From an uncultured Anaerolineales bacterium (lineage in GTDB: Bacteria > Chloroflexota > Anaerolineae > B4-G1): a stretch of DNA of 64,000 nt. Of this stretch, positions 28,095 through 64,000 are shown piece after piece (positions within the stretch are counted from its first letter, which is position 1; each line of letters begins with the position of its first letter). The position numbers and the translations under genes are program-made. Location: assembly GCA_964542755.1 (NCBI GenBank), contig CAZIWL010000007.1:1146-65145 (forward strand), read 5' to 3'. The notes beneath the pieces are model-generated. The model was not told the DNA's origin. It saw only the letters and a program-made list of their open reading frames with translations, and did no database searches.

Positions 28095-28189
28095 GTCGAC
28101 CTCCTCCAAGTCAGGAGCGGGTTGCAGGGGGATGAGATAGACGACAGGGCAGCGCGCCCCGAGGAGCGCGCTGCCCACGGCCTTCAGTT

Positions 28190-30216: not shown

Positions 30217-30297
30217 TGGTGCTCCTTCTCGATCTTGACTACGAAGCCCCCGGGAGAAGGGTTGTACCGTGGCGGGGTATGCGGCTGGTTAATTTCG

Positions 30298-30329
30298 ATT
30301 ATATTCACGACACTTGAAGGTGTCAAGTG
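30298..30329 (-). promoter_or_regulatory. Perfect-consensus sigma70 promoter with an overlapping palindromic operator, driving the ABC-racemase genes
   Basis: Minus strand TTGACA(30326-30321)-17 nt-TATAAT(30303-30298). CACTTGA-N5-TCAAGTG (30311-30329) covers the -35 element. Confidence 0.85.
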
Positions 30330-30439
30330 GGCATTCCTCCCGATAAACCGCGACAACTCTCACCAGTCAGCCCCAAGCGTCGGAGGGCGAGCCCGCTGGC
30401 TCACCGTGCGTTGATCATCGTTCTTCGCTCTACAAAAAG

Positions 30440-31597: not shown

Positions 31598-31599
31598 GC

Positions 31600-33732: not shown

Positions 33733-33929
33733 TGGGTCTCTCCTTGTCTCGATCCGCACTTTTGTTCACCTCTCTTGCTGGTCGGCTGCCTCCACGTATC
33801 GAGTGGCCGGCAGTGAATATGCGGGAACTCAAGCTCAGCTGCGGTCGCAGAGGGGGCTTATCTAAGGCCGTGTCCCAAGATGGTGATCAGCCACCGCTCG
33901 GGAAGCTGTGTGCGCTCTCTTCCCCGCCG

Positions 33930-44369: not shown

Positions 44370-46706
44370 TCAGTCCTCGTCCAACCCTTGATCGGCGCTC
44401 ACAGAGAGCGGGATCTCGACGGCGGTGCCACCGTCCGCACGCGGGAGACGTTCCATCGTATCCAGGTGATACATACCCACCAGGATTCGGTGCGGCCCGG
44501 CCGACGCGTCGGACGGCAGGGCAACGCGATGGAGATCGACCACCGTCTCCCCCGCCTCCCACAGCGAGGTCGGATAGTCTCCCGTCACCGGTGGGCCGTC
44601 CCCCTGTGCTATTGGCCGGTCCTCTTGCCCCAGCAGGTGCACGAACACCTGGTAATCCCTGGATGGGGCCTGGCGGGCCTCCCAGTGCAGGGTCACGGTC
44701 AGTGGCTCACCAGCACGGGCCGTCGCGGGAGAGAGATCGTAACCCAGAAGTGTCACGCCGTCGGCCAACTTCACGTCGAGGCGGTGCTCGGCACGAAGCT
44801 GAGTATCCGGTGGCGCCAGCTTTGCATAGCCCACCGGGATTGCACCGAGGGTCGCCTTGGCCTTTGGGTCGTAGAGTCCCACCTCCAGACGCAGGCGACT
44901 GGGAGCCTGCGCGTCCGGGGCCACGGGGATGCGGTAGGGGTCGCGCCAGACCTCGCCCGGATGCCACAGGCTGGTCGGGACCATCCCGCACGCCGGGTGT
45001 CGATTGATGTGACCGGCCAACTCATGCCCCCGACCTAGCAGACGCGCGAAACTCACGTAGTCCGTTGGGGTGGAGGTCATGGCCTCCCAATAGACGACGG
45101 CGTCAACAAATGCCCGGGGATTGTCGGCGTCCAGTGATTGCGGTTCGTATTCGACGCCCACCACCCGGGCAACGTCCTCCAACTCTTTGGGCTCAACACG
45201 TGCAGACTCCGGCACATCCGAGAGCTCCAGTGACTCTGGGCGTGCGTATTCCGGCGCGATGGCCACAAAGGGCAGCAGGCCGGCGATGATGAGCAGCAGC
45301 GCCCCGATGGCCGTCCCCACGGTCGGCCGCACCGGCTCTGGTGCCCACTGCCGGAATCCCAGGGCCATGAGCGAGCTGATGCCCGCGATGCCGGGAAAGA
45401 CGAGCCGCCCCTGGAAGGCGGGCGAGATCCACGTCCAGCGCAGCACGGAGACGAAGAGGATCAGGCCCCAGAGTGCAGGTATCATCACGGCACGGTCAGG
45501 GGCTTTGAATCCCCGTTGCCATCGTCGTCCGACCCAGATCAAGAAACCCGCCAGACCCAGCAGGGACAGGAGATCGAAGAGCCAGTAGACGGCCCGCGGG
45601 GCCATCACGTTGACGCCCCCGAAGAGCCCCCAGTAGGTCCAGCGGAACGTCCCAAACTCGCCCAGCCAATCATGCAGGTTGGGTGGTTGAGCCCGGGTGC
45701 CCTGGACGGCGATGAAGACGTTGAGCGCGGTGGGATCGCCGTAGAGCCTCCAGTTCCTCACGAACCACCATCCGCTCACTGCGGCTGCCACCAGCGCCAT
45801 GATCACTCCATAGCCAAGAATCCGGAGCAATCGATGAGACGGCCTTTCGTGGCTCCGTGTTTCCCAGGCACGAATTGCCACCACCAGACCCGCTACGGGA
45901 ATCAGTCCCAGTAGGCTGAGTTTCGTCAATGCCCCGACGCCGATCAGGAGCCCCAAGAGGGCGCTGCAAAGCCCCAGTCTGCCGAACCGGCCCGACTCGC
46001 CTCCTTTAGCGACGCGCACAATGACGAGGAGGGTGAAACTTCCGACGAGGGCAGCCATGGCATCGTTGTTCACCGATGCACTGACGAAAAGGAACATCGG
46101 ATTGAACGCCGTCAGCGCCGCGGCTCCCAGGGCGAGTGTCGGCCTCTCCGGGAAAAGGGTTCGCGATAGAGAGTACGTCACCAGCACCGTGGAGGCTCCG
46201 AAGGCTAGCGTCAGAAGCCGGATAACGCGGACGGCCAGAACGGAGCCCCTCCAGGGGAAAGCTTCCCTCTCTGGTCGATGGATGATCAGGTTCTTGTTGC
46301 ACACCTGGGTGGGATTGCCAATGAACGCGTGTTTGTTCTTCCACAGCAGGCTTGGGAGATCAGAGGTATCAATCCAGGACGTGGCCGCCGCCATGATGGC
46401 GTAGTAGGCGGGCGGCTGTCCCCCGTCCTGCAGCCAGGCGCAGTCGTCGGGCGACGCCTCGCAGACCTCGGGCTCAAGGACCGGCAGCTCACGATGTGTC
46501 TGGACATGCTGCACGTAGGGATAGTGTTTGAACTCGTCCGAGGCCTCAAGCACGGGGGTGACGAGGCTGTACAGGACGCCGAGCAGCACGAAGAGGACCA
46601 CTATCGCAGCCGCCATCATGGCTGGTCTGGAAAGCCAGCTGCGCGGCGGACCAGCCTCCACCCGGTCTCCCAGAGGGAGCTTGGGGCTCTTGCCTCTTCC
46701 AGTCAT
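44370..46706 (-). CDS. GT-C (ArnT/PMT-like, DUF2142-like N-terminus) membrane glycosyltransferase with 2 Ig-like domains (paralog A)
   Basis: TPVLEASDEFKHY; NKNLIIH; AFNPMFLFVSASVNND; LTK; QGRL; 2 domains with PTSxW. Confidence 0.8.
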   Translation of the reverse strand: MTGRGKSPKLPLGDRVEAGPPRSWLSRPAMMAAAIVVLFVLLGVLYSLVTPVLEASDEFKHYPYVQHVQTHRELPVLEPEVCEASPDDCAWLQDGGQPPAYYAIMAAATSWIDTSDLPSLLWKNKHAFIGNPTQVCNKNLIIHRPEREAFPWRGSVLAVRVIRLLTLAFGASTVLVTYSLSRTLFPERPTLALGAAALTAFNPMFLFVSASVNNDAMAALVGSFTLLVIVRVAKGGESGRFGRLGLCSALLGLLIGVGALTKLSLLGLIPVAGLVVAIRAWETRSHERPSHRLLRILGYGVIMALVAAAVSGWWFVRNWRLYGDPTALNVFIAVQGTRAQPPNLHDWLGEFGTFRWTYWGLFGGVNVMAPRAVYWLFDLLSLLGLAGFLIWVGRRWQRGFKAPDRAVMIPALWGLILFVSVLRWTWISPAFQGRLVFPGIAGISSLMALGFRQWAPEPVRPTVGTAIGALLLIIAGLLPFVAIAPEYARPESLELSDVPESARVEPKELEDVARVVGVEYEPQSLDADNPRAFVDAVVYWEAMTSTPTDYVSFARLLGRGHELAGHINRHPACGMVPTSLWHPGEVWRDPYRIPVAPDAQAPSRLRLEVGLYDPKAKATLGAIPVGYAKLAPPDTQLRAEHRLDVKLADGVTLLGYDLSPATARAGEPLTVTLHWEARQAPSRDYQVFVHLLGQEDRPIAQGDGPPVTGDYPTSLWEAGETVVDLHRVALPSDASAGPHRILVGMYHLDTMERLPRADGGTAVEIPLSVSADQGLDED

Positions 46707-49012
46707 CGGACGGTCACGTGCCCGATCACGACCGCATCATCCTCGATGCGCAGATCTGGACGATGCGCCCCTTCCTCGAGGCACGCGGGCAGACGGTGTC
46801 GGGTTTGGGATTCGTACATACCCGCCATCAGGAGGTAGCGGCCTGGCCGGGCTGTCCTTTCCACCTGAAGTCGATGGGGATCGCGCACGACATCCTCGGG
46901 TATCCAGAACGACGTGGGGAAGGCGCCGTCAAGCGGAGGGTGGTCGCTCTGGGAGATCAGGGACTCCTGCTCGTCTATCAGATGGAGGAAGACCGTGTGG
47001 TCGGTGTTCAGCGTCTTCTCCGCCTGCCACACCAACGTGACCGAGATTGCCTCCCCGGGGTGCACCTCGGTCTCCGACACATCGTAGCCCACCAGCGTGA
47101 TCGCCCCATCGAGTCGGGCCCCTACCTCGTGGGCGGCTTTGGCAGAGGCTGGCTCCATCGGGCGTACTGGAATGAGGTCGAGCAACATCATGTCCAGTGG
47201 CGTATCGTCCGGCGGACGCGTCACCGGCAAGCGAGTGCGGTTCTCGTCATAGAGTCCAGCATAGAGCGCAGCGGCTGTCGGCACCTCCGTGTCGAGTGGG
47301 AGTCTGAGCTCGTACTGGTCCCGGTAGATCACGTTAGCTTCCCACAGCGACGGGGGGAAGGTGCCCCTGCCGGGGTAGCAGTCCACGCCGCTGACCGCTT
47401 CCTTATCGCGCCCGAGTATCTGGACGAAAGCCAGGGCCTCTTCTTCAGGTTTCTGCCGCGCCCGCCAGTAGAGGCTGACGGAGAGGATGTCGCCAGGGTG
47501 GGCCCCCTCAGCCTCGATGTGACCTCCCAGGAGCTCGATGGGTGTCTGCCCAAAGGAGAGGTTCAGGCGGGACATATCCCTGGGCAGTTCGCTCTCATGC
47601 ACGATCGCGGGTTTCGCGTAGGCCGGGACGATGAAGGCGAAAAGGGAGATCGCCGCCATCGCGCATTGACCGCTGCCCATGAGGGCCGCCAGGGCCGGCC
47701 TCCAGCGATCCAGTGACAAACCCTCGGCCAGAAGGCGACTCATGCCCAGCATAATGAGGATCGATATCGCGGCCGTGGTCGGCATCAGATAGCGCCCCTG
47801 GGCTCCGAAGACGATCATGATGAACCGCCAGACGGAGCCTACATTCAGGAGCAGGGCGAAGGTGAGCACCAACAGCCCCTGCTGTACCGGCCGCGTGAAC
47901 TTCCGGGGGGAGAATTGATCGAGGGTCACCAGGACCAGGCCCAGGAGGGAGAGCCGCGTCACCACTCGCCACACGACGTACATCCATGGGGCCGCGGCGA
48001 TGTTGAACCAGCCGAACATTGCCCAGTAGGATTTCTCCAGCCCCCCCAGCTCGGGGATGACCTCGAGCACGCCGATCGGCTGGGCCCGCACGGTGGCAGT
48101 GTGACTCAACCATGCGTCGACGCCCATCAACTCATCGTAGAGGATAAGGTTACGGGCGAACCACCAGCCGCTCACCAAAGCCGCTGTCACGACTACCAGG
48201 GCCCAGCGGCCCCCCAGGGTTCGCAGACGGTGGCTGGCAGGATCCTCCTGGCGCTCGCCCCACTCTCGTAGGCTGTCGAACAGTAGGGCGAGTCCGACGG
48301 CGGGAGCCAGGACGACGCCGCTCAACTTGGAGAGCGCCGCCAGGCCCAACGCCGCACCGGTTAACAGGAGGCCTTTGGGAGGCAACCCTCTCGCCGCCAG
48401 GCGCACTGCTCCCCAGATGGCCAGTGACCCGAATGCCGTCACCGCCGCATCGTTGCTGACCCGGGCGCTGGTGAAGATGAACATGGGGTTGAGGGCAGCC
48501 AGGGCCGTGGCTCCCAACGCCAGCCAGCGCCTGTCCGGGAAGAGCTCCGTGGCGATGCCGTACACCGCCACGACAGCTACCATGCCCAGGGCTGTGGAGA
48601 CGAGGCGGGCGATGTGCATCGTCAGAGGTGTACCGCGCCACGGGAAATGTTCAGCCGGGGTATGCACCAGACGGTTCTTGTTGACGGTGCGACTCGCATC
48701 GCCCATCGTCTGATAGGGGTTCCGCCACGACCACTCCGCGAGCTCGACGTCGTCTTCGATCCAGAATGTCAGGGCGGCAACGAGCGAGTAGTAGACCGGA
48801 GGGTGGCTGGCAACGTAGCCGGTCACGCGCGCTCCCGACGGCGTCCCCTGGACCGGGAAACCACGGCCCTCGGTCAGCTCGTGGATGTAAGCGTAGTGCC
48901 CGTTGGCGTCCGGGGTCTCGAATATGGGTATGGTTACACCGTACAGCAGGGCCAGCGTCAGATAGAGCGCGAGGATGACGCCAAATGTCCGGTGTCTCTT
49001 GAGCCGCGCCAT
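46703..49012 (-). CDS. GT-C membrane glycosyltransferase with 2 Ig-like domains (paralog B)
   Basis: IPIFETPDANGHY; NKNRLVH; ALNPMFIFTSARVSND; QGRYL. ATG 49012 overlaps the upstream stop. Confidence 0.8.
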   Translation of the reverse strand: MARLKRHRTFGVILALYLTLALLYGVTIPIFETPDANGHYAYIHELTEGRGFPVQGTPSGARVTGYVASHPPVYYSLVAALTFWIEDDVELAEWSWRNPYQTMGDASRTVNKNRLVHTPAEHFPWRGTPLTMHIARLVSTALGMVAVVAVYGIATELFPDRRWLALGATALAALNPMFIFTSARVSNDAAVTAFGSLAIWGAVRLAARGLPPKGLLLTGAALGLAALSKLSGVVLAPAVGLALLFDSLREWGERQEDPASHRLRTLGGRWALVVVTAALVSGWWFARNLILYDELMGVDAWLSHTATVRAQPIGVLEVIPELGGLEKSYWAMFGWFNIAAAPWMYVVWRVVTRLSLLGLVLVTLDQFSPRKFTRPVQQGLLVLTFALLLNVGSVWRFIMIVFGAQGRYLMPTTAAISILIMLGMSRLLAEGLSLDRWRPALAALMGSGQCAMAAISLFAFIVPAYAKPAIVHESELPRDMSRLNLSFGQTPIELLGGHIEAEGAHPGDILSVSLYWRARQKPEEEALAFVQILGRDKEAVSGVDCYPGRGTFPPSLWEANVIYRDQYELRLPLDTEVPTAAALYAGLYDENRTRLPVTRPPDDTPLDMMLLDLIPVRPMEPASAKAAHEVGARLDGAITLVGYDVSETEVHPGEAISVTLVWQAEKTLNTDHTVFLHLIDEQESLISQSDHPPLDGAFPTSFWIPEDVVRDPHRLQVERTARPGRYLLMAGMYESQTRHRLPACLEEGAHRPDLRIEDDAVVIGHVTVR

Positions 49013-51798
49013 CACTCTACCCTCACCTCTTCCAACAACACATAGCCCCCGGGAACGACCTTCCCGTCCACCGTGGTCTGGGGTCGCTGGCCGGTCTCGG
49101 GGTCGAAAAACCCTATCAACAGGTCGTAGGTGCCGGGGGGGACGTCGGACAAGGACACGACGTGCGTGTCCGCGATGACTTCTCCTGCCCGCCAACTGGT
49201 CGTTGGGCGGGTCCAATCGACCGGCAGGCCACCGGCCTCGGCCAGCGGAGGCTCCTCCGCCTCGCCGACGTGTACGAAAACGTGGTAGTTCTCGTCCAGG
49301 GAGTCGTCCGCCTGCCAGTACAGGGAGAGATTCAGGGCACTGTCTTCACGCTCCAGGTCATAGCCCCGGAGATGGACCTTCTCCGCCAGCGTGTTGTCGC
49401 CCATCGTGTGGTCAACGTCCTCAGGCATTCTGGTAACCATAGGCCAGACGTCAATCTGCACGCTCCCCAACGTCAACCAATCGCGCTCTCCGTACCAGTG
49501 CTTCACTGGCACCACGCTTCCGTCTCTCTGCTCGATCAGACTTATCTGCACCTGGTGGCTTCCGCTCTTCAATTCGGCCGGAAGTTGCATAATCAAGCGC
49601 CCGGCCACTGGATCGCCGGGGGTCCACCTGCTGGTCGGATACTCTGCCGCACTGAGGGGCGTCTCCCTGCTGGTCACCACCCCCCGCTGCGGGTCGAGGA
49701 TGCGGATGCGTAGCGCGTAGTCGTCCTTCGGGGTCGCGCTTGCCCTCCACGTCAAATTCCCCGTAAGCGGATAACCGGCTCGGAAGGTATCGCTTTCCAG
49801 CTTCGCGTCGAGCAATTCAAGATTGCCCTCAAAGTGGGCCATCGGGCGGGCTGCGCCGTCCTGGGACGTGGGAGGGTCTACCCCGAGTTGTCCCACCTGG
49901 CGAGACTCGCCGAGCCCTACCGGTTCCAGGCTTAGCGTGTAGCTGATGGGAGGTAGATCCTCCGGCAGCGGTAACCGGAACTCGACGCGAACGATGTCGT
50001 CCGTCGGCCAGGCCGCGGGCGGATAGAACGGCAGGACGTCAGATCTTCTCTCATGCCAGACAGTCCCGGCGCTGTCCAGGAGTTGAGCCTTCAGCGTGAG
50101 AGGCTCCTCTGGTGGATCCTCGCCCACTTGCCAGTAGAGGTCCACCCACGCCTCCTTCCCTGCAGCGGTGCCCTGCGGGCGTATGCCCACCAGGTGAAGT
50201 CCGCCCCATCGCTCGTCCCGGGCATCCACGCCCGTCGGGATCGTCTCGAGAGTGGGCGGGTGGTGTTCATACCCTGCGACTCCGACGTAGGTCCACCAGG
50301 CTTCGAATTCTTGCTGGCAAACCTTGAAGAGGTTCGCCTCTGCCCAGTCCGGCAGGAAGTCGTGGGGGAAATACGTGGGCGGTGGGCCGTACATGAACCA
50401 GATACGCTCGTACCGGCGGGCCCACGCCTCAAAGCTGGCCTGGGCACGGGCTGTGTCCCGGTTGTTGCCGTAGCGCGGAATCGCGACCTCTGGGTAGGGG
50501 CCGTCATAGTAGTAGTCAAAAGTTAGGCGAATCACGGGGTGGTGCAGGATGATGGCGTCCCCGGGCCGGGCCCTCTCCTCGATGTACTGGACGGCGCCCC
50601 TGATGTCGTCCTTCCAGAATTGGTGAGAGGTGAGGATATCGTAGCTGGCACTGACGCGCAGGACAAGCACCAGACCCAGAGCCAGCACCAAGCTCGGGCT
50701 GAACCAGCGTCTGAGGGTGGTCAACCCTTGGGCCAGCATCAACTCAAAGGCCGGAGCGACCACCATCAAATGCCGCGGGTTCATGTAGTTTGGTTTGATC
50801 AGGGAGAGTGCGTACTGAAGGAGCACGGGGATAGCCAGGTAACCTAACCCGACGACCCAGCCACGCCGACGGGTCTCAACACCGGCCACGAGTATCCCCA
50901 CGCCGAATAGGCTGAGGAAGGGGAGTAGGCGCCACCACGGCTGTATCGCGGAGCGGGTGGGGCCCAGGCTGAACGAGCTCCAAGCTTCCTTAAGGATGAT
51001 GCCTAGGGGCCGATAGGTGAACGAGAAAGGATGGACACCCAGCAGCCGCCAGAGGAAGGGGACCAGGGGGAGCACCGCGATGATCAACGCGGCAAGGATG
51101 ACCAGCGGCTCGCGGCGCTGCCGCCGCACCCGGTGGAGACCGTAGACCCCCAGTTCGAAGGCCAAGAGGAGGAAACCCGCGTAATGAGTGTACAGGAGAG
51201 CCAGCGTCGTGACGACGTAGGCTGCGTAGTCCTTCCGTCGAGCCCCCTTCTCAAGAAGTGGTAGGAAGAAGTACATCGACGTCAGGCTCAGGACGACCAG
51301 CCAGGTATACATGCGGGCTTCCTGCGCATACCAGAGGAAGAAAGGAGATGCCGCCCCCATCAAGGCTGCCCAGAGACCTGTCTCGCGGTTGAAGAGAGCG
51401 CCTCCAACGACGTACAGGAGCGCTACGGAGAGCGTTGCTGCGAAGACCGAGGGAAACCGCAGGGCGAACTCGCTCCGCCCGGCAAGCGGTAACCAGACGT
51501 GCATCAACAGAAAGTAGAGCGGAGGATGGAGATCAGGGGTCCTGACGAACGATCCACGAGTTGATCCGTCTTGGTAATCAGGGTCGACCGGGATCAGATT
51601 GACGTTCTCGAAGATCAGACCGAGGGATTGCTCAGCCCGACGGAGCGTCAGGCCCTCATCGCTCCACAGGCTCTTGGCGCCCAGATCGTGCGTGCGGATG
51701 GCGAACGACAGCGCAACCAACAGGAGTAGAAACGTCCACACCCGTCGCGAGAGAGTATTGCGGCTTGAGAAAGTGAGTCGACCGTCCATCTCCGGCAT
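49012..51798 (-). CDS. GT-C (GT39-like) membrane glycosyltransferase with 3 Ig-like domains (paralog C)
   Basis: SLWSDE; HPPLYF; LRFPSV; YAQEARMY; YTHY; PRHL. Confidence 0.82.
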   Translation of the reverse strand: MPEMDGRLTFSSRNTLSRRVWTFLLLLVALSFAIRTHDLGAKSLWSDEGLTLRRAEQSLGLIFENVNLIPVDPDYQDGSTRGSFVRTPDLHPPLYFLLMHVWLPLAGRSEFALRFPSVFAATLSVALLYVVGGALFNRETGLWAALMGAASPFFLWYAQEARMYTWLVVLSLTSMYFFLPLLEKGARRKDYAAYVVTTLALLYTHYAGFLLLAFELGVYGLHRVRRQRREPLVILAALIIAVLPLVPFLWRLLGVHPFSFTYRPLGIILKEAWSSFSLGPTRSAIQPWWRLLPFLSLFGVGILVAGVETRRRGWVVGLGYLAIPVLLQYALSLIKPNYMNPRHLMVVAPAFELMLAQGLTTLRRWFSPSLVLALGLVLVLRVSASYDILTSHQFWKDDIRGAVQYIEERARPGDAIILHHPVIRLTFDYYYDGPYPEVAIPRYGNNRDTARAQASFEAWARRYERIWFMYGPPPTYFPHDFLPDWAEANLFKVCQQEFEAWWTYVGVAGYEHHPPTLETIPTGVDARDERWGGLHLVGIRPQGTAAGKEAWVDLYWQVGEDPPEEPLTLKAQLLDSAGTVWHERRSDVLPFYPPAAWPTDDIVRVEFRLPLPEDLPPISYTLSLEPVGLGESRQVGQLGVDPPTSQDGAARPMAHFEGNLELLDAKLESDTFRAGYPLTGNLTWRASATPKDDYALRIRILDPQRGVVTSRETPLSAAEYPTSRWTPGDPVAGRLIMQLPAELKSGSHQVQISLIEQRDGSVVPVKHWYGERDWLTLGSVQIDVWPMVTRMPEDVDHTMGDNTLAEKVHLRGYDLEREDSALNLSLYWQADDSLDENYHVFVHVGEAEEPPLAEAGGLPVDWTRPTTSWRAGEVIADTHVVSLSDVPPGTYDLLIGFFDPETGQRPQTTVDGKVVPGGYVLLEEVRVE

Positions 51799-51820
51799 GT
51801 TACCGCACTTTTCCGGATTC

Positions 51821-56343: not shown

Positions 56344-56481
56344 CGCTCGCACGTGCAGGTTCCAGATACGTCGATGGACGAAGAGCGCTGCAATCTCGGT
56401 TCCCAGACACTCTGGCGTCTCCTGGCCCATTCCTCCAAAGCGTATCAGCCGCCATCCGAACTCGCTCGAGCGAGTGGGTCA

Positions 56482-58563
56482 TCATGGTGCTCCCGAAATC
56501 GCGAGCTCGGAGAGGGTGATTTGCCCTCCTGGCAGCTCGGTTCCGTCGGCGTCCCGAGCCGGGAGACGCGCCTTCGTGCCGTAGTCGTACATACCCACGG
56601 ATAGGGTGTAGGTCCCTCGAGGCAGGCCCACCGGCACCGGGACCGGGTGGTCATCCCGGACTACCTCGCCCTTCTGCCAGCCCCAGGTCGGTCGGTCGCG
56701 CGACGCTGGCACGCCGTCGTGCTGGGCCACCAGATTGCCGCCCTGGTCCAGCACGTGCACGAAGACGTGGTTGTCGGCGCCTACCAAGCCGTCAGAGCGC
56801 CAGAATAGGGTCACCGAAAAGGTGTCGCCGGCGGAGAGCATCGTCGAGGGCAAGGTGTAGCCCAGCAGCTCGACGTGATCCCCCAATCTGGCGTCCACCC
56901 GGTGGTCGACCGAGAATGCGCTCAGGTCTCTCGCATAAGCACTACAAACCCAGACGTAAGGGACGCCGTCGAAGGACTGCGTCCAGATCGGACCCTCGGC
57001 CTGGCAGGCCTCCCAATACGTCTCACAGTGCTCAAAGCGGACCGATCGCTGGACATCATTGACGTGGAAGACTCGGTAGTCCACCGTCGTGTGGTTGATG
57101 GGCTTCGTTACACCCTTGAAGTTCTCCCGGAACATCAGATTGCCCGGGTCGCAGATGCCGACCGTGAGGAAGCCAGCTCCCGGCTTCTGGTTGAGGTACC
57201 GGGCCGCCCGGTCCAATCCCTCCCCTTGATCCCCGAGCTGGAACAGGCTACGGGCCACTCGTGACCCTCCCAGCAGGAGGTTGTGATGGGTCCCGGGGTA
57301 GGGGTGCACGCGCAGCACCAGCCCGCTGTGCAGGGCCAATACGCCGGCGAGAAGCAAGGCCGAAGCCCGGCCGGTCAGCCATGTGGTGCGTGCCCGCAGC
57401 GTCTCCATACCCCTGACCAATCCCCAGGCCGCCAGCACGTCCAGCGCCAGGAACACGGGCAACACGTATCGCGATGTCTTCTTAGCACTCAGCGTCATCT
57501 GCAGCAGAAAAGCGGTGGCGTAGACGAGCACATAGCGCGCGGTCCGCGAGTCCTCTTCACCCCGGTCCCGGACGGCGAACCAGAGGGCGAGGCCGAAAGC
57601 CGGCAGTGTGACCAGGCTCATTTTCCAGGCCAAGACGGCCGGATAGTATGTGGGTCCCAGGTTTCGGACCGTCTCGCCGAGGAAGAACTGGGGGAATGGG
57701 TGGGACTGCTCGGCGTGGTGCAGGACACCGTTGAGGAGCATGTCCGAGACAGTTCTTCCGGGTTGCACCCACATCGCTGGCCAGAGGACGAAGAAGACGA
57801 CCGCAGCCGCCATGACCCACACCGCCAGCGCCGGAATCGTTCTCTTAGGGAGCTTGCGCCAGGTGCTCACCTGCAGGAAGCTTGAAGCCCCGTCGCTGGA
57901 CAGATGTCCGATCGTGAGGCTTAGACCGGCGAACGGTACCAAGAACAGGGCTGGGCTCTTCGTCAGAAGGGCGAGCCCTCCAAAGACGCCGCTGAACACA
58001 AGCTCTGACCACCTCTTCGTCTGGGCGTAGCGAATCAGAAGGAGAGCACTGAGCAGCATGAAGCTTGACAGCAACGCATCGACGTGGATCAGCTTGCTCT
58101 GCGCGACGAAAAACGGGTCCAGCGCGAGGAAGACGCCGGCGATGAGACCCACGGCTTTGCCCATCAGCTGCGCAGCCAGCGCGCATGCGCCGAGAATGCA
58201 TAGGGCGATCACCAGACCCAGGGCCGCCGTACCGGCGTGCGCCGAAGGGCTCTGGGGACTCGGCAGCTCGCCCGGCAGGGAGACGATGTCCGCCGCGGGC
58301 TGCCCCTGGTTGGCCAGATAAGCCCGCATCCCTGAGCCAGCGATCCACATCGTGGTGACCCCGGGATGGTAGCTCTGGTAGGTCGCCTTCAGGTCTCCCT
58401 CGAAGAGGGCGCCCCAAAACGCGGCCGAGCGCTCGTACCAGACGGTATACTTCGACGCGGGGCACGGGAGGCGCACTGAAAGGGCCAGCAGGAATACACT
58501 TGCCATGCCCAACCAGTAAGCGCTTCTTTTCATGCTAGCCTCGGCCTGAACGGCGTCCACCAC
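56482..58563 (-). CDS. GT-C membrane glycosyltransferase with 1 Ig-like domain (paralog F, HPGVT subfamily)
   Basis: YHPGVTTMW; ALDPFFVAQSKLIHVD; LTKSP; KKTSRYVLP; HPY; GEG. Alternative start ATG 58533. Confidence 0.8.
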   Translation of the reverse strand: MVDAVQAEASMKRSAYWLGMASVFLLALSVRLPCPASKYTVWYERSAAFWGALFEGDLKATYQSYHPGVTTMWIAGSGMRAYLANQGQPAADIVSLPGELPSPQSPSAHAGTAALGLVIALCILGACALAAQLMGKAVGLIAGVFLALDPFFVAQSKLIHVDALLSSFMLLSALLLIRYAQTKRWSELVFSGVFGGLALLTKSPALFLVPFAGLSLTIGHLSSDGASSFLQVSTWRKLPKRTIPALAVWVMAAAVVFFVLWPAMWVQPGRTVSDMLLNGVLHHAEQSHPFPQFFLGETVRNLGPTYYPAVLAWKMSLVTLPAFGLALWFAVRDRGEEDSRTARYVLVYATAFLLQMTLSAKKTSRYVLPVFLALDVLAAWGLVRGMETLRARTTWLTGRASALLLAGVLALHSGLVLRVHPYPGTHHNLLLGGSRVARSLFQLGDQGEGLDRAARYLNQKPGAGFLTVGICDPGNLMFRENFKGVTKPINHTTVDYRVFHVNDVQRSVRFEHCETYWEACQAEGPIWTQSFDGVPYVWVCSAYARDLSAFSVDHRVDARLGDHVELLGYTLPSTMLSAGDTFSVTLFWRSDGLVGADNHVFVHVLDQGGNLVAQHDGVPASRDRPTWGWQKGEVVRDDHPVPVPVGLPRGTYTLSVGMYDYGTKARLPARDADGTELPGGQITLSELAISGAP

Positions 58564-58618
58564 GATCGACTCCTACTCATGCACGGTGCTAAGGGCTGAA
58601 TCTTTGCGCAGGGGCTCC

Positions 58619-58647
58619 ATTGTAACGCGAGGCATGGGCGCAGGCAA
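58619..58647 (-). promoter_or_regulatory. Internal sigma70 promoter ahead of paralog F
   Basis: Minus strand TTGCCT-17 nt-TACAAT; a GGAG RBS precedes GTG 58563. Confidence 0.6.
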
Positions 58648-58749
58648 GACCTGCTACGGGTCTTGGAACTCGATGGTGCCGGGGAGCACGCCATATTGGC
58701 TCTGGTCACCCACACGCTAACCCGCGCCGACTGATCTTTCGCCTCGGTC

Positions 58750-59060
58750 AAGGCGACCCAACCGTAGGCGGAAACGCGGCCGACCAGGTGCTCGGGCATC
58801 AGCCCGCCAACGATGCGGAATCCGGCTGCTTCGTGGCTCACCGGGCTGATACCGTTGGGATGATGGAGATAGGGGGTGTGGTAGAGCTGGTGATCCCTTG
58901 TCAGGGCGCGCCGGGTCCACCAGCCGTCCCAGTGGTGGCGGAGGCTGTCGTTGGACGGTCCCGGAAGGTGATCGTTCGTCTCCGTAATGAGGGGCCAGGT
59001 GATGAGGAGGCTGAGCGCCAGGTAGGCCAAGAAGGCCGCGAGGAACACCCAGCCTGACAC
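58750..59060 (-). pseudogene. N-terminal remnant of a YfhO-like/GT-C membrane protein
   Basis: VSGWVFLAAFLAYLALSLLITWPL...PGPSNDSLRHHWDGWWTRRAL...HTPYLHHPNG...AY matches the 'TWPL..G..D...W..WW...AL...YP.G' start of a large membrane family. The sequence loses similarity after about 100 codons. Confidence 0.55.
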
Positions 59061-59252
59061 GCGTGTCTCTCTCCCGCGTCCCGCGGTCTTGTTTCCCGTC
59101 TCCCAGCTAATCCCCGGCAGTCTCCTACGCGATTCCACTCTGCAAGGCCCTCCCGATCCCAGGTCGTTGGTACACTGGACACTTGCCCGGCTGTGCTGAG
59201 CCCTCGTCACGCATCTAGTCTCTGAGCTGGGCCGACAGGGCAACTCAGAGGC

Positions 59253-61487
59253 TCAGCCGTCGGATAGACCTGGCGAGGCTCTGCCGTGCGCCGCCTTGAG
59301 GATTCCGCCAACGGTGGAGAGGAGGACCAGTAGACCGAGGAGACGAGCCCATTGGGCCTGGGGGGCAGCTCGCCGCGCCGAGACCTGCAAGGAGGCAGCC
59401 ACGTAGTGGTCCCTACTTGTCGCCCGGCTGTCGCCACCAACGATGAGGCGCTCCCCGGTTCTCCAGTCGTAGAGCCCGACGGTCAACGTGTAGTCCCCTT
59501 CTGGGAGATCGGCGGGCAGCTCCATGGTATGTGGGTCGACGACCGTCTCGCCCGGTGTCCAGCTCCAGGTGGGTCGTGTGCCGTGATCCGCGGCCCCATC
59601 CTCTTGCCAGATCAGGCTGCCGTTGGGCCCTGTCAAGTGGAGGAAGATACTCAGGTCCTCGGTGATGGCCTCGGTTGCCTTCCAATAGAGGGCCACGGGG
59701 ACGTCGTCCCCCGGCGCCGCCTCCGTCCCGCGCAGGTCGTAGCCCACCAGACGGAATCGCTCGCCAAAGCGAACCTCTGTCCGGTGCTCGGGGGGGCTGC
59801 TCGATCCTAGCTTGGCGTAGAGCCAGGCATAGGGCACGCCGTCGAATGCAACGTCGCGCGTCGGCTGCCGGGCCGCGTACCGTTCCCAGATCCGGCCCCA
59901 CTCCTCAGCTTTGTAGTCGCGCGATGTATAGTTGCGGTGGAACGCGACATAGTCGGCCGACCCCGACGGCAGCGCCGCTCCCTCGCCGATCTCCACGGTG
60001 GTGCCACGGAAGGTCTGATTGAAGACGTGCTTCAGCTGGGCCGCCGTGGTGAGTCCCCCGGCCGCGGGCTTGGCGTTCAAGTAGTCAGTCAGCACGGCGT
60101 ATCCCTCACCTTCCTCTCCGATCAGGATGGCGTCGGCCGCAGCTGGCGGTCCCCCCGCCAGCCAGTTCAGGGCCGTCCCGTAGTAGGGATGACGTGGCAG
60201 GGACACGGCTCCCTGGATCACCACCGGTAGGGCCATTAGAGCCAGGCGGGCGAAACGCCGCTTCCCGGCGAGGGCCTTCGCCCAGGCGACGGCACCGGCC
60301 GCTGCCAGGATGGTGAGCGGCAGGAGTGCCGGGAGGATGTAGCGAGGCATCTTCTTGGCACCTAGCGACATCTGACCCAGGTAGAAGACGGCAAAAGCCA
60401 GAAGGAGGAGCAGATCGGTGATGGTCTGCTTTCGCGTAGCCTGGCAGGCACGCGCGGCGGGCTGAGGATCAAGGAGGGCGCCGAGCCCAATCGCTGCCCC
60501 GACGGCGAGGAAGAGTAGCTCAATCTCACTCGAGCGAAAGAGGAGCGAGATGAGATAGAACAGAGGCCCGGGGTCGTCCCGCACCACTTCGCCCAGGAAG
60601 AGCGTCGGACTGTCGTGGGCCGTCGTCGCGTGACGCGTGAGGCCCCACCTCACCGCAGCGATCCCCTTGCCCGGCGCAACCCACATCACCGGCCATGCCG
60701 CCACATAGACGATGCCGGCGACCAGAAGCCAGACGACCAGAGGCCCCGCCACGCTGAAGAATAGGTCCTTGATGGCGCGGCGGCCCTCGACCGCTAGGTC
60801 GGTCAGCAAGATCAGGCCGAAGAAGGGCACCAGGAAGACTGCCGGGATCTTCGTGAGTAGCGCCAGGCCTCCCAGCCCGCCAGACAGGACCAGCCAGGCC
60901 CACCCCCGCTCGCGGCGGTAAACCATCATCGCCAGGGCGGAGAGGAGCATCAGGGTGGCCATCGCAGCGTCCAGGTGGAGAATCTTGCTCTGTGCGATGA
61001 AGTAGGGGCTTAGGGCCAATAGAAGCCCTCCGACCACAGCCGTGCTTTCATCGAAGAGCCGCCTCAGGAGGAGATACACGCCGACCACGCCAACGGCTAT
61101 CAGCAGGGCCAGCGGCACCACGGCGGCTGCTATCTCATTCAGCGGAACGGGCCCGGAGAAGTGGATCGGCTCGAAGTCCGGCGGGACGGTACTGGCTGCT
61201 GGACGGATGCCAGAGAGGGCCCAGAAGACCTTCAGCCCGATCCCGGACAGCCACATGAGGGTCACCCCCGGATGCTCAGAGTAGACAGTACTCGCCCAAT
61301 CACCACTCAGCGTGTCCTCGATGAAGTAAGCCGAGCGGAGGTACCAGACAAGGGGACGAGAGACCGGTTGTACGGCCCGCGGCAATAAGGCGACGAGGAA
61401 CAGGATCGCCACGAATAGTCCGCGACCGAGTCTTGGTGAAAAGAACCTGGACCCCTTGGCCCGTCCGATACTATCGTTCTCCGTCAT
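59253..61487 (-). CDS. GT-C membrane glycosyltransferase with 1 Ig-like domain (paralog G, HPGVT subfamily)
   Basis: EHPGVTLMW; ALSPYFIAQSKILHLD; LTKIP; KKMPRYILP; HPYY; GEG. Confidence 0.8.
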   Translation of the reverse strand: MTENDSIGRAKGSRFFSPRLGRGLFVAILFLVALLPRAVQPVSRPLVWYLRSAYFIEDTLSGDWASTVYSEHPGVTLMWLSGIGLKVFWALSGIRPAASTVPPDFEPIHFSGPVPLNEIAAAVVPLALLIAVGVVGVYLLLRRLFDESTAVVGGLLLALSPYFIAQSKILHLDAAMATLMLLSALAMMVYRRERGWAWLVLSGGLGGLALLTKIPAVFLVPFFGLILLTDLAVEGRRAIKDLFFSVAGPLVVWLLVAGIVYVAAWPVMWVAPGKGIAAVRWGLTRHATTAHDSPTLFLGEVVRDDPGPLFYLISLLFRSSEIELLFLAVGAAIGLGALLDPQPAARACQATRKQTITDLLLLLAFAVFYLGQMSLGAKKMPRYILPALLPLTILAAAGAVAWAKALAGKRRFARLALMALPVVIQGAVSLPRHPYYGTALNWLAGGPPAAADAILIGEEGEGYAVLTDYLNAKPAAGGLTTAAQLKHVFNQTFRGTTVEIGEGAALPSGSADYVAFHRNYTSRDYKAEEWGRIWERYAARQPTRDVAFDGVPYAWLYAKLGSSSPPEHRTEVRFGERFRLVGYDLRGTEAAPGDDVPVALYWKATEAITEDLSIFLHLTGPNGSLIWQEDGAADHGTRPTWSWTPGETVVDPHTMELPADLPEGDYTLTVGLYDWRTGERLIVGGDSRATSRDHYVAASLQVSARRAAPQAQWARLLGLLVLLSTVGGILKAAHGRASPGLSDG

Positions 61488-61518
61488 TCTCGCGTGCCCC
61501 TGTCTCGCGTCTCGCGAC

Positions 61519-64000
61519 TCAAGGCTCTACCTCGACGTTGCCGAGCATCACCCGATCGTCGGGCAGCCGGTCTCCCCCCGGACCGTACACGAACAGACGA
61601 TCCCCGCTCGCGGGATCGTAGAGACCGATCCCTAGGGAATAGATGCCGGGCGGCGTCGCGGACGCCAGCTGGACGTGATATCGATCGGCCACGATCTCAC
61701 CTTTCTCCCAGTTTGTGGTGGGTCGAGCTCCCAGCCCAGGATGTCGGTCCCGCTGCGCCAGAATCCCGCCCCGACCGTCGTACAGGTGCACAAACACCTT
61801 ATAGTCGCGATCTGGCGCCCGGTCGGCCCTCCAGTACAGTGTCACGGCGACAGTCTCTCCAGGCTCTGCGCGACGATCCACGGTGTACCCCAGCAGGCTG
61901 ATCCCCTCACCAAGCGTGAAGGACACGGGCTCCTCCGGGTCCACGGTCGGGGTTGAGCCTGGGGTCGTTGACTGCACCCAGAGGTCCAGCAGTTCCACCG
62001 GATCGACCAGTACGGGCTCACCGCTCACGTCGAGGAGCTCGAGCGACAGCGTTGCTTCTCCAGTGGGCACACTCTCTTCGGTGGACAAGTAGTACCAGTC
62101 AGCCACCAGCTCGTCCGGCTGCCACTCGGAGGTTGGATGGTTGGTGCTTGTGACATCAAGCGCCTCCTGCCCGTAGATGGCGCCGTCACGTCCCGCGAGA
62201 CTGAGACGCAATCGGTAGTCGCGATCGATTGCGCCATTGGCTTGCCAGAAGAGGCGAAGGCCGACGGTCTCCCCCGCGAACATAGCCTCAGCGATCCCCG
62301 TGCGTCCAGGCTCCAACTCGTATCCCAGTAGGTTGAGATTCGCCGTAACCGGAACAACCACGCGGCGCGGGATGCTCAGATCCTGCGGGTTGGGCACCTC
62401 GTCGGGACGTCCGATCTCGACCGTCACCCGAGCGTCTGTCTCATTGGCAGCCTCATCCGACCCTAGCAGGCGCAAGCGCTCACCCGTCTCCAAGGTGTAC
62501 ACGCCGATTTCCAGATCATACACCCCTGGCGGGGTGCCCGGAGGCACGGCGAGGTGATAAAGGGCCGACCTGGTTGCACTTGTTTCCCAACGGGACGTTG
62601 GCTCGAGAGTCCGGTCTACGATCAGGCTGTCTCCTTGAACAATCCGGTGACCATGGCTATCATACACGTGGAGATAGACGGAGTAGTCCTCCTCCAATTC
62701 CTCTGTCGCCTCCCACGTGAGCACTATCCCGCCATCTCTGCCCCAGGCGGGTGGCGGATCCGTGACTCCGTAGCTCACCAGACGGAGCCCTTCGAATGCG
62801 AGGTCTAGCTCCCGGGACGCGACAGCCGGGTCCACGAGCTGATGGCGCGTGACCTCAGTCTGCCGGAAGCTGGCCCTGTCAAGCAGCAGGCCGCGGGCCT
62901 CCAGCAGGTTGAGGTAGCGATCACCCTCTGCCTCTGGGTAGCGGGGATACCATATCCGGCTGCAGCCGCCCGTAATCCCGTCCAAGAAATCGCTCATCGT
63001 CCCCAGATCAGGATAGGTGTACGAACGCGTCTTGGGGTCATATTCTGGCGAGAAGGTGTGGAGTGGGAGATTGCCTTTGTAGTGCTTGACGAACAGCGAC
63101 TTCCCGTTGGCCAACACACATTCCCCTCGGTCGGCCTGGGCGAGCTGTTCCACACGTGCTACGGCCTCCTCGTAGTCATCATTGTGGTACACCCAGGCAT
63201 AGTCAACGCCATGTAGGGAGACGACTCGCTCAGGCGTGCGCGAAGGGTTCAGGAGATACCGCTGGAGCAGCGCCGGCTGCTGGCGTCTCTGCACGTCCGA
63301 GATGTAGAAGACCACGTAGTCGCTCTGCCACGGGAAATACCGGTCCATCGGCCAGGTCTCCCCCTCGAACAGGGGAGCGAACGCCGCTGTCGTTGGCGTC
63401 GTAACCAGAAGCTCTTCGGCCTTAGGCTTCCCATTCAGGTACTCGGCGACCTGGTCGTAGCCCTCTCCCCACCCCACGAGGAGGACTCTCTGAGCTTTCT
63501 TTGCGCCTCCAAGTAGCGGATCGTAGTACGTCAGGTAGTAGGGATGGTGTGGCACAACCAGTGCCACCTGTGCGACGAGTATCACCAAGACTATCGGGAG
63601 CAGAAGGGCAGGGGGGCTGGAGGTCCGGTCACCGTTCACGCAGCGTCTTATGGCTTGGCACAGGCGCTCGCTTCCCCCCACCAGGCCCTGGGCAGCGGCG
63701 ATTCCCAGGGCTGGGAAGACGGGCAGCATGTACCGATCGAACATCTTGTCCCCCAGGCTCATGAAGATGGTGAAGAGTCCGCTGTAGGACAGGAGCGCCA
63801 ACAGACTAAACCGTGCGGTTTGCCGTGGGCCGCGCAGCGTGAGCCGGACAATGCTCCCTGCGAGGCCCAGCACGACCAGAGGACTAAGACGGAAAAGCGC
63901 CGCCACAGGATAGAATAGCCAGCCGGGATCGTGAACTGGTCTCCCGAGGAAGAAGTTGCCGGGGGTGTGTCCTTCCGCGGCGTATCGTGTGGCCGTGCCC
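61519..64000 (-). CDS. GT-C membrane glycosyltransferase with 3 Ig-like domains (paralog H); 5' end lies beyond the window
   Basis: The frame stays open to the window edge (GTATRYAAEGHTPGNFFLGRPVHDPGWLFYPVAALFR, homologous to F and G); KMFDRYMLP; HPYYLTYY; GWGEG. Confidence 0.8.
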   Translation of the reverse strand, partial: GTATRYAAEGHTPGNFFLGRPVHDPGWLFYPVAALFRLSPLVVLGLAGSIVRLTLRGPRQTARFSLLALLSYSGLFTIFMSLGDKMFDRYMLPVFPALGIAAAQGLVGGSERLCQAIRRCVNGDRTSSPPALLLPIVLVILVAQVALVVPHHPYYLTYYDPLLGGAKKAQRVLLVGWGEGYDQVAEYLNGKPKAEELLVTTPTTAAFAPLFEGETWPMDRYFPWQSDYVVFYISDVQRRQQPALLQRYLLNPSRTPERVVSLHGVDYAWVYHNDDYEEAVARVEQLAQADRGECVLANGKSLFVKHYKGNLPLHTFSPEYDPKTRSYTYPDLGTMSDFLDGITGGCSRIWYPRYPEAEGDRYLNLLEARGLLLDRASFRQTEVTRHQLVDPAVASRELDLAFEGLRLVSYGVTDPPPAWGRDGGIVLTWEATEELEEDYSVYLHVYDSHGHRIVQGDSLIVDRTLEPTSRWETSATRSALYHLAVPPGTPPGVYDLEIGVYTLETGERLRLLGSDEAANETDARVTVEIGRPDEVPNPQDLSIPRRVVVPVTANLNLLGYELEPGRTGIAEAMFAGETVGLRLFWQANGAIDRDYRLRLSLAGRDGAIYGQEALDVTSTNHPTSEWQPDELVADWYYLSTEESVPTGEATLSLELLDVSGEPVLVDPVELLDLWVQSTTPGSTPTVDPEEPVSFTLGEGISLLGYTVDRRAEPGETVAVTLYWRADRAPDRDYKVFVHLYDGRGGILAQRDRHPGLGARPTTNWEKGEIVADRYHVQLASATPPGIYSLGIGLYDPASGDRLFVYGPGGDRLPDDRVMLGNVEVEP

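Follow-up and report, generated by a model that had tools for sequence, protein, structure and literature searches.

A tandem array of GT-C glycosyltransferases with repeated C-terminal Ig-like domains in an uncultured Anaerolineales bacterium

A stretch of 64,000 nucleotides from an uncultured Anaerolineales bacterium (contig CAZIWL010000007.1, positions 1,146 to 65,145; hereafter the window, meaning the whole stretch of DNA that was analysed) contains an array of membrane glycosyltransferase genes of the GT-C type. Between 42.9 and 64.0 kb the window holds nine tightly packed genes on the minus strand. Eight of these encode GT-C proteins that end in copies of an immunoglobulin-like (Ig-like) beta domain, and the ninth encodes a membrane protein of the Wzy_C family. 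By analogy with the Emb/AftD enzymes and with family GT136, the array would form an extracytoplasmic line that builds or decorates a cell-envelope glycan, a reading that is favoured here with moderate confidence. PMT_2-type GT-C enzymes, Ig-like accessory modules and Wzy_C proteins are already known as kinds, and relatives of the array genes are annotated as 'glycosyltransferase family 39'. New features are the size of the array, the conservation of its gene order, its constant association with Wzy_C, and the presence of one unnamed, very abundant domain as the common C-terminal tail of several Chloroflexota GT-C families. The genes are, by coordinate:

Wzy_C gene, 42875-44365, minus strand: O-antigen polymerase/ligase-like membrane protein, 496 residues, last in the unit
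G1, 44370-46706, minus strand: GT-C (PMT_2), 778 residues, subfamily A, two Ig-like repeats
G2, 46703-49012, minus strand: GT-C (PMT_2/PMT), 769 residues, subfamily A, two repeats
G3, 49012-51798, minus strand: GT-C (PMT_2), 928 residues, own subfamily, SLWSDE after transmembrane helix 1 (TM1), three repeats
G4, 51821-54094, minus strand: GT-C (PMT_2), 757 residues, subfamily A, GTG start, two repeats
G5, 54091-56430, minus strand: GT-C (PMT_2/PMT), subfamily A, two repeats
G6, 56482-58563, minus strand: GT-C (PMT_2/PMT), 693 residues, subfamily F, HPGVT and GEG motifs, extra soluble domain, one repeat
G7, 59253-61487, minus strand: GT-C (PMT_2/PMT), 744 residues, subfamily F, one repeat followed by a C-terminal hydrophobic segment
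G8, 61519 to beyond 64000, minus strand: C-terminal 826 residues of a 1105-residue GT-C protein, subfamily F, three repeats

The genes are transcribed in the order G8, G7, G6, G5, G4, G3, G2, G1 and Wzy_C. Overlapping start and stop codons, which a preliminary description of this DNA had reported for several of the genes, were located at three junctions. The start of G4 lies on the stop of G5 (GTGA), the start of G2 on the stop of G3 (TGATG) and the stop of G2 on the start of G1 (ATGA), and the Wzy_C gene starts 4 nucleotides (nt) past the stop of G1. Overlaps and gaps of 1 to 4 nt at these junctions (G5/G4, G3/G2, G2/G1 and G1/Wzy_C) constitute operon structure, in support of an assembly line. 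The other gaps measure 22 nt (G4-G3), 31 nt (G8-G7) and 51 nt (G6-G5), the last becoming 138 nt if G5 begins at Met30 (56343). This is probably its true start, since the resulting length of 750 residues matches those of the orthologues. The sole long spacer of the array is the 689 nt between G7 and G6. The frame of G8 is open at the window end and its N-terminus lies past position 64000, and the full-length protein of 1105 residues was taken from contig L079, which has 99.8% nt identity to the window. The G+C content of the array (0.62-0.65) is like that of most of the window (approximately 0.58-0.65), and therefore gives no hint of a foreign island. Scans of the 64-kb window for tRNA genes and Rfam families gave no match. 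Promoter-like sites in the window showed no excess over shuffled expectation and terminator-like sites were modestly above it but mostly within genes, so that no operon boundary could be called.

Comparison of the membrane parts by BLASTP separated the proteins into the three subfamilies that had been proposed: G1, G2, G4 and G5 (subfamily A, 32-37% identity), G6, G7 and G8 (subfamily F, 34-36%), and G3 alone. Membrane parts are barely alignable between the three groups. The motifs assigned to each group were also recovered, with P.[FL]E..D and NKN..H in subfamily A, SLWSDE in G3, and HPGVT and GEG in subfamily F. In the proteins of subfamily F the membrane part is separated from the first repeat by an extra soluble region of approximately 150-270 residues, which includes the GEG motif and gave no Pfam match. 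These proteins also resemble Agl23 (TIGR03663), a protein of archaeal N-glycosylation, weakly and below threshold. In G7 the single repeat is followed at residues ~716-740 (window ~59270-59345) by a hydrophobic segment, AQWARLLGLLVLLSTVGGILKAA, which may be a C-terminal membrane anchor.

The identity of the membrane parts was examined using the Pfam families PMT_2 (PF13231, gathering threshold 26.1 bits) and PMT (PF02366, 22.7 bits). PMT_2 scored above threshold in G1 (32.1 bits), G2 (55.2), G3 (55.1), G4 (40.0), G5 (58.2), G6 (47.4) and G7 (57.2). G8 has no Pfam match inside the window because its membrane part lies past 64000, and the full-length protein gave 46.1 bits for PMT and 43.1 bits for PMT_2, both above threshold. 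PMT was also above threshold in G2, G5, G6 and G7, fell below it in G1 (21.0) and G4 (16.1), and gave no match in G3; in every window gene matching both families PMT_2 gave the higher score. More specific models scored poorly. The NCBIfam ArnT equivalog NF009784, with a cutoff of 567 bits, gave only 16-20 bits (16.6 in G5 and 20.1 in G7), the weak NCBIfam similarity of G3 to mannosyltransferase MT1671 was far below cutoff, and the Pfam arabinosyltransferase family did not match any array gene. A PDB sequence search with full-length G5 and G7 returned no match at E up to 1.

The structure of G5, the one paralogue whose membrane module was modelled, was predicted with AlphaFold2 from an alignment of 52 homologues. 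The model had a mean predicted local distance difference test score (pLDDT) of 91.3 and a predicted template modelling score (pTM) of 0.87. In it 11 long helices precede residue 460, TM1 is followed by a helical insert, and TM7 by a second outside loop; hydropathy analysis gave 8-11 segments in G1-G7. When the model was compared with the PDB using Foldseek, the best match was Pmt4 (9i5k), with a TM-score normalised to the target of 0.60. Other matches were ArnT (5f15, 5ezm), AglB (3waj), EmbC (7bvh), ALG9, ALG12, STT3 and DPY19, all at a probability of 1.00, and the match to EmbC spans 763 columns. Together the Pfam matches and the predicted G5 fold indicate that the membrane parts of the array are GT-C enzymes, in agreement with the preliminary description, which had proposed a comparison with ArnT, PMT and AglB.

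The alignment of 52 subfamily-A sequences, which takes in G1, G2, G4 and G5, revealed eight invariant residues: P31, E34, D37, N110, K111, H116, D187 and K228 (G5 numbering). E34 and D37 belong to the first outside loop and immediately follow TM1, the position of the catalytic acid in solved GT-C structures and in the GT136 enzyme ORF12 (PMC11127046). G3 has SDE after TM1 at the same place as E34 and D37, and in the corresponding loop of the six subfamily-F paralogues the pattern W..RS..F...D...T....HPGV is invariant. As the loop residues are conserved in all subfamilies, no paralogue has the appearance of a dead enzyme, and all look active from their sequences. With the N-terminus of G5 inside, 18 lysine and arginine residues fall in inside loops against 8 outside; this distribution and the 11 transmembrane helices place the C-terminal repeats, which follow the last helix, outside the membrane. 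The repeats are thus predicted to be extracytoplasmic, as had been suggested before.

The PMT matches above cutoff in G2, G5, G6 and G7, and Pmt4 as the best structural match of G5, also fit a different reading. In this alternative the enzymes would act, as O-glycosyltransferases of the PMT/TMEM260 type, on Ser/Thr of secreted, S-layer or sheath proteins, the repeats would dock the protein substrates, and the Wzy_C protein would be a PglL-like O-oligosaccharyltransferase. We consider it rather unlikely. PMT_2, which outscored PMT in the window genes, is a broad family that includes lipid- and glycan-directed enzymes, and neither a MIR domain, for which no Pfam match was obtained in any array gene, nor another protein-binding domain was found. 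The MIR beta-trefoil in the large luminal loop is a feature of eukaryotic PMTs and is missing from bacterial PMTs as well, so that its absence is compatible with a protein acceptor. A third possibility is that the enzymes are lipid-directed, as are ArnT and PimE, and glycosylate glycolipids or lipoglycans instead of a wall polymer or a protein. The presence of ArnT among the structural matches, the weak NCBIfam similarity to ArnT and the label 'ArnT family' in source annotations of relatives are in its favour. The 16-20 bits obtained against a 567-bit cutoff count against it, as does the observation that known lipid-directed GT-C enzymes need no large extracytoplasmic beta-sandwich arrays. Chloroflexota moreover have no lipopolysaccharide biosynthesis pathway (PMC13319060), and a lipid acceptor is regarded as highly improbable.

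The repeats were located with a hidden Markov model (HMM) built from the last ~130 residues of each of the eight proteins, the terminal copies. This revealed 16 copies of a domain of approximately 125 residues, distributed from G1 to G8 as 2, 2, 3, 2, 2, 1, 1 and 3, with independent E-values from 1e-54 to 4e-7 on the array proteins. A six-frame scan of the whole 64 kb with the same model gave the same 16 copies and no others, and both results agree with the number and distribution given in the preliminary description. The copies are:

G1 repeat 2 of 2 (terminal), 44397-44783, minus strand: score 163
G1 repeat 1 of 2, 44844-45182, minus strand: score 45.5
G2 repeat 2 of 2 (terminal), 46742-47125, minus strand: score 167
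G2 repeat 1 of 2, 47210-47542, minus strand: score 59.9
G3 repeat 3 of 3 (terminal), 49036-49401, minus strand: score 143
G3 repeat 2 of 3, 49501-49836, minus strand: score 45.3
G3 repeat 1 of 3, 49930-50196, minus strand: score 14.4, the weakest of the 16, independent E-value about 1e-6 to 8e-6
G4 repeat 2 of 2 (terminal), 51863-52240, minus strand: score 164
G4 repeat 1 of 2, 52310-52675, minus strand: score 84.9
G5 repeat 2 of 2 (terminal), 54115-54483, minus strand: score 148
G5 repeat 1 of 2, 54538-54891, minus strand: score 80.8
G6 single repeat, 56515-56901, minus strand: copy used for the structural model, pLDDT 94.9
G7 single repeat, 59397-59783, minus strand: score 167
G8 repeat 3 of 3 (terminal), 61543-61926, minus strand: score 159
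G8 repeat 2 of 3, 62026-62346, minus strand: score 49.5
G8 repeat 1 of 3, 62425-62790, minus strand: score 69.4

Alignment of the 16 copies gave the consensus L.GY...L.W.A......DY.VF.HL...G....Q.D..P..G..PTS.W..GE.V.D......P...PPG.Y.L..GLY, in which W34, P71 and W75 are invariant. The G6 copy was modelled with AlphaFold2 from an alignment of 35 sequences, giving a confident (pLDDT 94.9) all-beta sandwich of nine strands. An origin of the repeats by chance or low complexity was ruled out by E-values reaching 1e-54, the three invariant residues and the confident fold. The best Foldseek matches of the model were the carbohydrate-binding domains of Wzt from A. aeolicus (6o14 and 8dky, E approximately 1e-5, TM-score approximately 0.55), the second of which contains bound 3-O-methyl-mannose, and the comparison with E. 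coli Wzt (2r5o) gave a TM-score normalised to the query of 0.60-0.66. The predicted fold is thus an Ig-like (E-set) sandwich of a generic kind, closest in structure to glycan-binding domains, which bears out the Ig-like assignment of the preliminary description and agrees with the comparison it had proposed with the Wzt C-terminal domain.

Sequence gave little indication of homology to a named family. No Pfam or NCBIfam model matches the repeat, and one of 50 repeat relatives gave a weak match to Pfam Wzt_C (E 8.6e-4). Searches of the PDB with repeat profiles gave marginal hits only, to Ig, RbmA and sialidase proteins. With the broader profile of 64 sequences the hits were confined to RbmA (E 0.004), a glycan-binding protein of the biofilm matrix that consists of a pair of sandwiches of this kind, and a bacterial sialidase, in its Ig-like domain. 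These PDB sequence profiles do not retrieve Wzt. P-T-x-x-W, the most conserved motif, falls between strands 6 and 7 in a loop that contains a short helix. Model confidence is lowest there apart from the N-terminal tail, and the position of the motif in a low-confidence loop outside the core makes it a candidate ligand site.

The eight terminal copies share a mean identity of 36% among themselves, compared to 17-34% with the internal copies of their own proteins, indicating that the repeats already stood in tandem when the genes were duplicated. Across the subfamilies, conservation is also higher in the terminal copy than in the catalytic module. As it is retained where the catalytic parts can no longer be aligned, the terminal repeat would recognise a feature common to all steps. 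The same conservation would equally fit a common partner or self-association, and hence a structural role in which the repeats are spacers or oligomerisation surfaces for a multi-enzyme complex, or reach an outer layer of the envelope; such a role is compatible with either acceptor. The generic E-set sandwich also serves protein-protein contacts, as in RhoGDI, transglutaminase and Ig constant domains, and Emb and Pmt enzymes act as dimers. The module of GT136 ORF12 is furthermore dispensable for activity (PMC11127046). A purely structural role is nevertheless judged unlikely, given that the top structural matches are carbohydrate-binding domains, that P-T-x-x-W lies in a loop and not in the sandwich core and so resembles a ligand site more than a packing surface, and that the copy number varies from 1 to 4 between paralogues. 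Recognition of a glycan by the repeats remains the reading adopted here.

The distribution of the repeat was examined by an exhaustive profile search of 1.84 billion representative proteins (clusters at 50% identity), which gave 30,909 clusters at E up to 1e-3, of which 21,667 remained when the limit was set to 1e-10. Among the best 150 matches the repeat occurs 3-4 times per protein and invariably forms the C-terminal end, the last copy being followed by no more than 28 residues. The N-terminal part of 50 relatives that were scanned matched PMT_2 in 27, PTPS_related in 7, TMEM260-like in 4 and YfhO in 3. Because it is always C-terminal and occurs on several GT-C families, the repeat behaves as a dedicated GT-C accessory. 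Its occurrence on TMEM260-like protein O-mannosyltransferase homologues would also fit a protein acceptor, although its closest structural relatives bind polysaccharides. All sampled matches with an organism name were from Chloroflexota. A word-indexed search with the repeat profile returned 19 short fragments only, which were uninformative on architecture, and a tblastn search of the G5 repeat pair against plasmids gave no match.

The array was followed beyond the window end along a tiling path through metagenome contigs of closely related strains, using DNA matches and homologue searches; the contigs overlap by 0.9-12.7 kb at 99.4-99.8% nt identity. The members found upstream of G8, in order of transcription, and a remnant within the window are:

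V5, upstream of V4, array strand: DUF6311-like, without a repeat, truncated at the contig end
V4, V3 and V2, after V5, array strand: DUF6311/YfhO-like, two repeats each
U6, after V2, array strand: PMT_2, one repeat
U5 and U4, after U6, array strand: G8-like, three repeats each
U3, after U4, array strand: G6-like, one repeat
U2, directly before G8, array strand: DUF6311/YfhO-like, no repeat
Remnant, 58530-59243, minus strand, in the G7-G6 spacer: pseudogene of a DUF6311/YfhO-like gene

The extended locus measures approximately 45 kb and contains at least 17 GT-C-type genes, one remnant, the Wzy_C gene and at least 30 copies of the repeat. The preliminary description had placed 'at least 8' genes between 44370 and 64000; the eight were confirmed, but along the tiling path the number is far higher, and the unit continues below 44370 into the Wzy_C gene. 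The DUF6311/YfhO Pfam scores of the upstream members are below the curated cutoffs. In the remnant, which one metagenome annotation calls a 202-residue gene, approximately 95 N-terminal residues are recognisable and are followed by unrelated sequence. It has no Pfam match, and BLASTP gave 33% identity to U2 (E 6e-15) and 40% to V2 (E 4e-16). The segment was also considered as a frameshifted N-terminal extension of G6, which was rejected as the N-terminus of G6 aligns fully to those of G7 and U3. The parallel orders U4-U3-U2 and G8-G7-remnant suggest a duplicated three-gene unit of which one copy has decayed.

Arrays of this kind are typical of Anaerolineae and other Chloroflexota. Orthologues of G5 form more than 100 clusters, with identities of 57-84%, and those with a name come from metagenome-assembled genomes (MAGs) of Anaerolineae and other Chloroflexota; relatives bear the public labels 'glycosyltransferase family 39', 'ArnT family' and '4-amino-4-deoxy-L-arabinose transferase-like'. 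In the 78 related loci that were retrieved, it is the rule to find two to seven GT-C genes with repeats arrayed in one direction. The preliminary description had thought such expansions typical of Anaerolineae and functionally uncharacterised; the orthologues and related loci extend this to other Chloroflexota, and the searchable literature yielded no description of the arrays beyond an incidental table entry. Gene order is also conserved, and in many Anaerolineae MAGs G3-like, G2-like, G1-like and Wzy_C genes follow one another, usually after a G5-like gene. A G5-like gene followed by G3-like (with three repeats), G2-like, G1-like and Wzy_C genes is present in five loci (L001-L003, L005, L006), G3-G2-G1-Wzy_C in another four (L048, L064, L067, L072) and G2-G1-Wzy_C in further loci, and in most other loci the G3 orthologues likewise have three copies of the repeat. 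L012, from a Thermoflexia MAG, has G7-, G5-, G4-, G3-, G2- and G1-like genes and Wzy_C, almost the order of the window. In the 22.4-kb locus L016 seven GT-C genes lie in tandem, as a G3-G2-G1-like set, a G4-like gene and a second G3-G2-G1-like set, and whole-module duplication therefore occurs in other lineages too. In one relative a phage-type integrase gene lies directly upstream of the G5-G3-G2-G1-Wzy_C module (L001 8867-9905, L002 1466-2218), and in L001 an IS91-type transposase zinc-ribbon gene is also upstream, hinting that the module can adjoin mobile DNA.

The Wzy_C gene is a recurrent partner of the array. Its product scores 46.9 bits with Pfam Wzy_C (PF04932, cutoff 31.7) and far below cutoff with the NCBIfam models for IctB and for the exosortase-associated O-glycosylation ligase, and such a gene directly follows the last GT-C gene in approximately 16-20 related loci. 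The product thus belongs with the Wzy/WaaL/PglL proteins and may be a polymerase, a ligase or a protein oligosaccharyltransferase. A census in which all non-array open reading frames (ORFs) of 74 loci were clustered gave as recurrent neighbours, on the array strand in all or nearly all cases, genes for glycosyltransferases of families GT2 (22 loci) and GT4 (15 loci), Wzy_C (16), GDP-mannose 4,6-dehydratase (13), the flippase-like membrane protein LPG_synthase_TM (11), TatD (10), polyprenyl synthase (7) and phosphomannomutase (6). One arrangement is common to many of the loci and runs from the dehydratase through phosphomannomutase, TatD, polyprenyl synthase, GT2 and GT4 to the GT-C array, often followed by LPG_synthase_TM; this synteny was found in L031, L032, L034, L044, L050, L060, L063, L065 and L076. 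The dehydratase is often represented by two epimerase/dehydratase genes, and the polyprenyl synthase is of the trans type (PF00348). The recurrence of the dehydratase, GT2 and GT4 genes ties the arrays to glycan biosynthesis.

Some of these neighbours bear on the alternative acceptors. The phosphomannomutase fits a mannose donor for protein O-mannosylation, and the Wzy_C family includes protein O-oligosaccharyltransferases. The GT2, GT4 and GDP-mannose dehydratase genes suggest instead a glycan that is built up, and a dozen or more sequential paralogues are better suited to a complex polymer than to modification with a single sugar. The LPG_synthase_TM protein that often follows related arrays would suit a lipid acceptor. 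As a whole the context, comprising Wzy_C, GT2, GT4, GDP-mannose dehydratase, phosphomannomutase and the flippase-like protein, leans towards a glycan polymer over protein glycosylation.

For such an envelope glycan the following scheme can be proposed. Each paralogue, working on the external side of the membrane, would use a polyprenyl-phosphate-linked sugar as donor and add one particular sugar or linkage to the growing chain. The beta-sandwich modules would keep the acceptor polymer close to the active site, as has been shown for the carbohydrate-binding modules of EmbC, AftD, GT136 ORF12 and Wzt. The terminal repeat may read a feature common to all steps, either a shared backbone or a partner, and the diverged internal repeats may give step-specific recognition. 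Polymerisation or ligation of the lipid-linked unit, which the GT-C enzymes extend or decorate, would fall to the Wzy_C protein. We infer location, donor, acceptor and the role of the repeats, alongside a gene structure, fold and family, repeat count and synteny that are observed.

Several observations weigh against this scheme. No DPM1/GtrB-type synthase or GtrA-type flippase was found by Pfam beside the array among window ORFs of at least 177 residues, and the recurrent neighbours of related arrays contain no clear DPM1/GtrB-type synthase and no GtrA-type flippase. The GT2 of the shared synteny resembles the usual Leloir enzymes that build up chains. In the window the Wzy_C gene is followed by unrelated housekeeping genes for an M50 peptidase, an HD protein and prephenate dehydrogenase, after which come a GT4 gene and an ABC-2 permease gene. 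With respect to the repeats, the NPC2, RhoGDI, transglutaminase C-terminal, GH3 accessory and CARDB domains score almost like Wzt, the copies in the window give no Pfam Wzt_C match even at E up to 10, and the invariant W34 lies in a strand of the model and is probably a core residue. Finally, the membrane part is closest in structure to Pmt4, an enzyme that O-mannosylates proteins, which leaves some probability with a protein acceptor.

Among the closest systems described to date is that of Citrobacter youngae O1, in which the GT136 enzyme ORF12 serves extracytoplasmic glycosylation as one of three components (Kelly et al. 2024, PMC11127046). ORF12 is a GT-C protein of 11 transmembrane helices whose periplasmic C-terminal Ig-like module, after TM11, binds the acceptor O-polysaccharide (PMC11127046). 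The array proteins resemble it in the number of helices, the acidic residues just after TM1 and the C-terminal Ig-like beta-sandwich. They differ in falling in PMT_2 and not in GT136, in having 1-4 tandem modules compared to one, and in occurring as eight (at least 17 in the extended locus) paralogues in a row compared to a single enzyme. The host is a member of the Chloroflexota, the unit is closed by Wzy_C, and no adjacent polyprenyl-phosphate-sugar synthase or MATE flippase was found.

A second comparison is with the mycobacterial arabinosyltransferases EmbC, EmbA, EmbB and AftD (GT53 and related). The embCAB genes are a tandem set of paralogues, and like the array they combine tandem GT-C paralogues with beta-sandwich modules, which are extracytoplasmic in these enzymes and, by prediction, in the array. 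These enzymes build a wall heteropolysaccharide stepwise outside the membrane from polyprenyl-phosphate sugars, a process to which that of the array may be likened, and the modules of EmbC and AftD bind the acceptor, the growing arabinan (PMC11127046). The window array is far larger, belongs to another phylum, has another module family and lacks a Pfam arabinosyltransferase match. Resemblance to the PMT (GT39) and ArnT (GT83) enzymes consists of PMT_2 above threshold in all eight proteins and PMT in five, Pmt4 and ArnT among the top folds, and a D-E pair in the first outside loop. Differences are the lack of MIR, the added C-terminal Ig-like arrays, and NCBIfam ArnT and mannosyltransferase scores far below their cutoffs.

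YfhO/DUF6311-type GT-C proteins, which are involved in the glycosylation of teichoic acids in Firmicutes, are represented by the upstream part of the array and the remnant, and V2-V4 of this type carry the repeat. No CsbB/GtrB-like partner was seen. The C-terminal domain of Wzt (PF14524) resembles the repeat as a beta-sandwich attached to glycan-assembly machinery and can be superimposed on it (2r5o, 6o14, 8dky; TM-score 0.5-0.66), a likeness of fold that falls short of established homology. In contrast to the predicted position of the repeat, it is cytoplasmic and lies on the ATPase of the O-antigen ATP-binding cassette (ABC) transporter.

The chemistry of the Chloroflexota envelope is poorly known, and the locus provides a conserved candidate gene set for an extracytoplasmic glycan layer. 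Chloroflexota are without lipopolysaccharide and BAM pathways, yet some have multilayered envelopes (PMC13319060). A more far-reaching version of the favoured reading, which is put forward tentatively and is itself doubtful, is that the array represents an independently evolved, dedicated assembly line with a logic like that of mycobacterial arabinogalactan and lipoarabinomannan, building an outer polysaccharide or sheath layer behind the diderm-looking, multilayered envelope of monoderm Chloroflexota. The repeat would then be a new and very large GT-C-specific carbohydrate-binding family, of which the terminal copy reads the backbone and the internal copies read step-specific structures. The repeat is in any case a widespread domain (approximately 31,000 clusters) without a name in current family libraries. 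Should the repeats be carbohydrate-binding modules, they would offer a large new supply of domains for glycan recognition, and the array would be a natural system for the division of labour among GT-C enzymes on one polymer.

Other regions of the window contain further gene clusters. A cluster at 20942-33759 on the minus strand contains a glycyl radical enzyme (pyruvate formate-lyase-like, 788 residues) with its radical-SAM activase, a proline-racemase-family protein, a branched-chain-type ABC transporter with a binding protein, a DAO-type FAD oxidoreductase and a 2Fe-2S/pyridine-nucleotide-disulphide oxidoreductase, and looks like a pathway for the anaerobic catabolism of hydroxyproline or proline derivatives. 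At 199-3808 on the plus strand two adjacent genes encode Lectin_like/DUF4082 proteins, the second of which (770 residues) is fused to a papain-family C1 peptidase. Further glycan-related genes outside the array lie at 38266-40349 and 8747-11416 on the minus strand. In this set a GT4 gene overlaps an ABC-2 type permease gene by 4 nt with no ATPase gene seen beside them, and a second GT4 gene adjoins that of a sulfotransferase.

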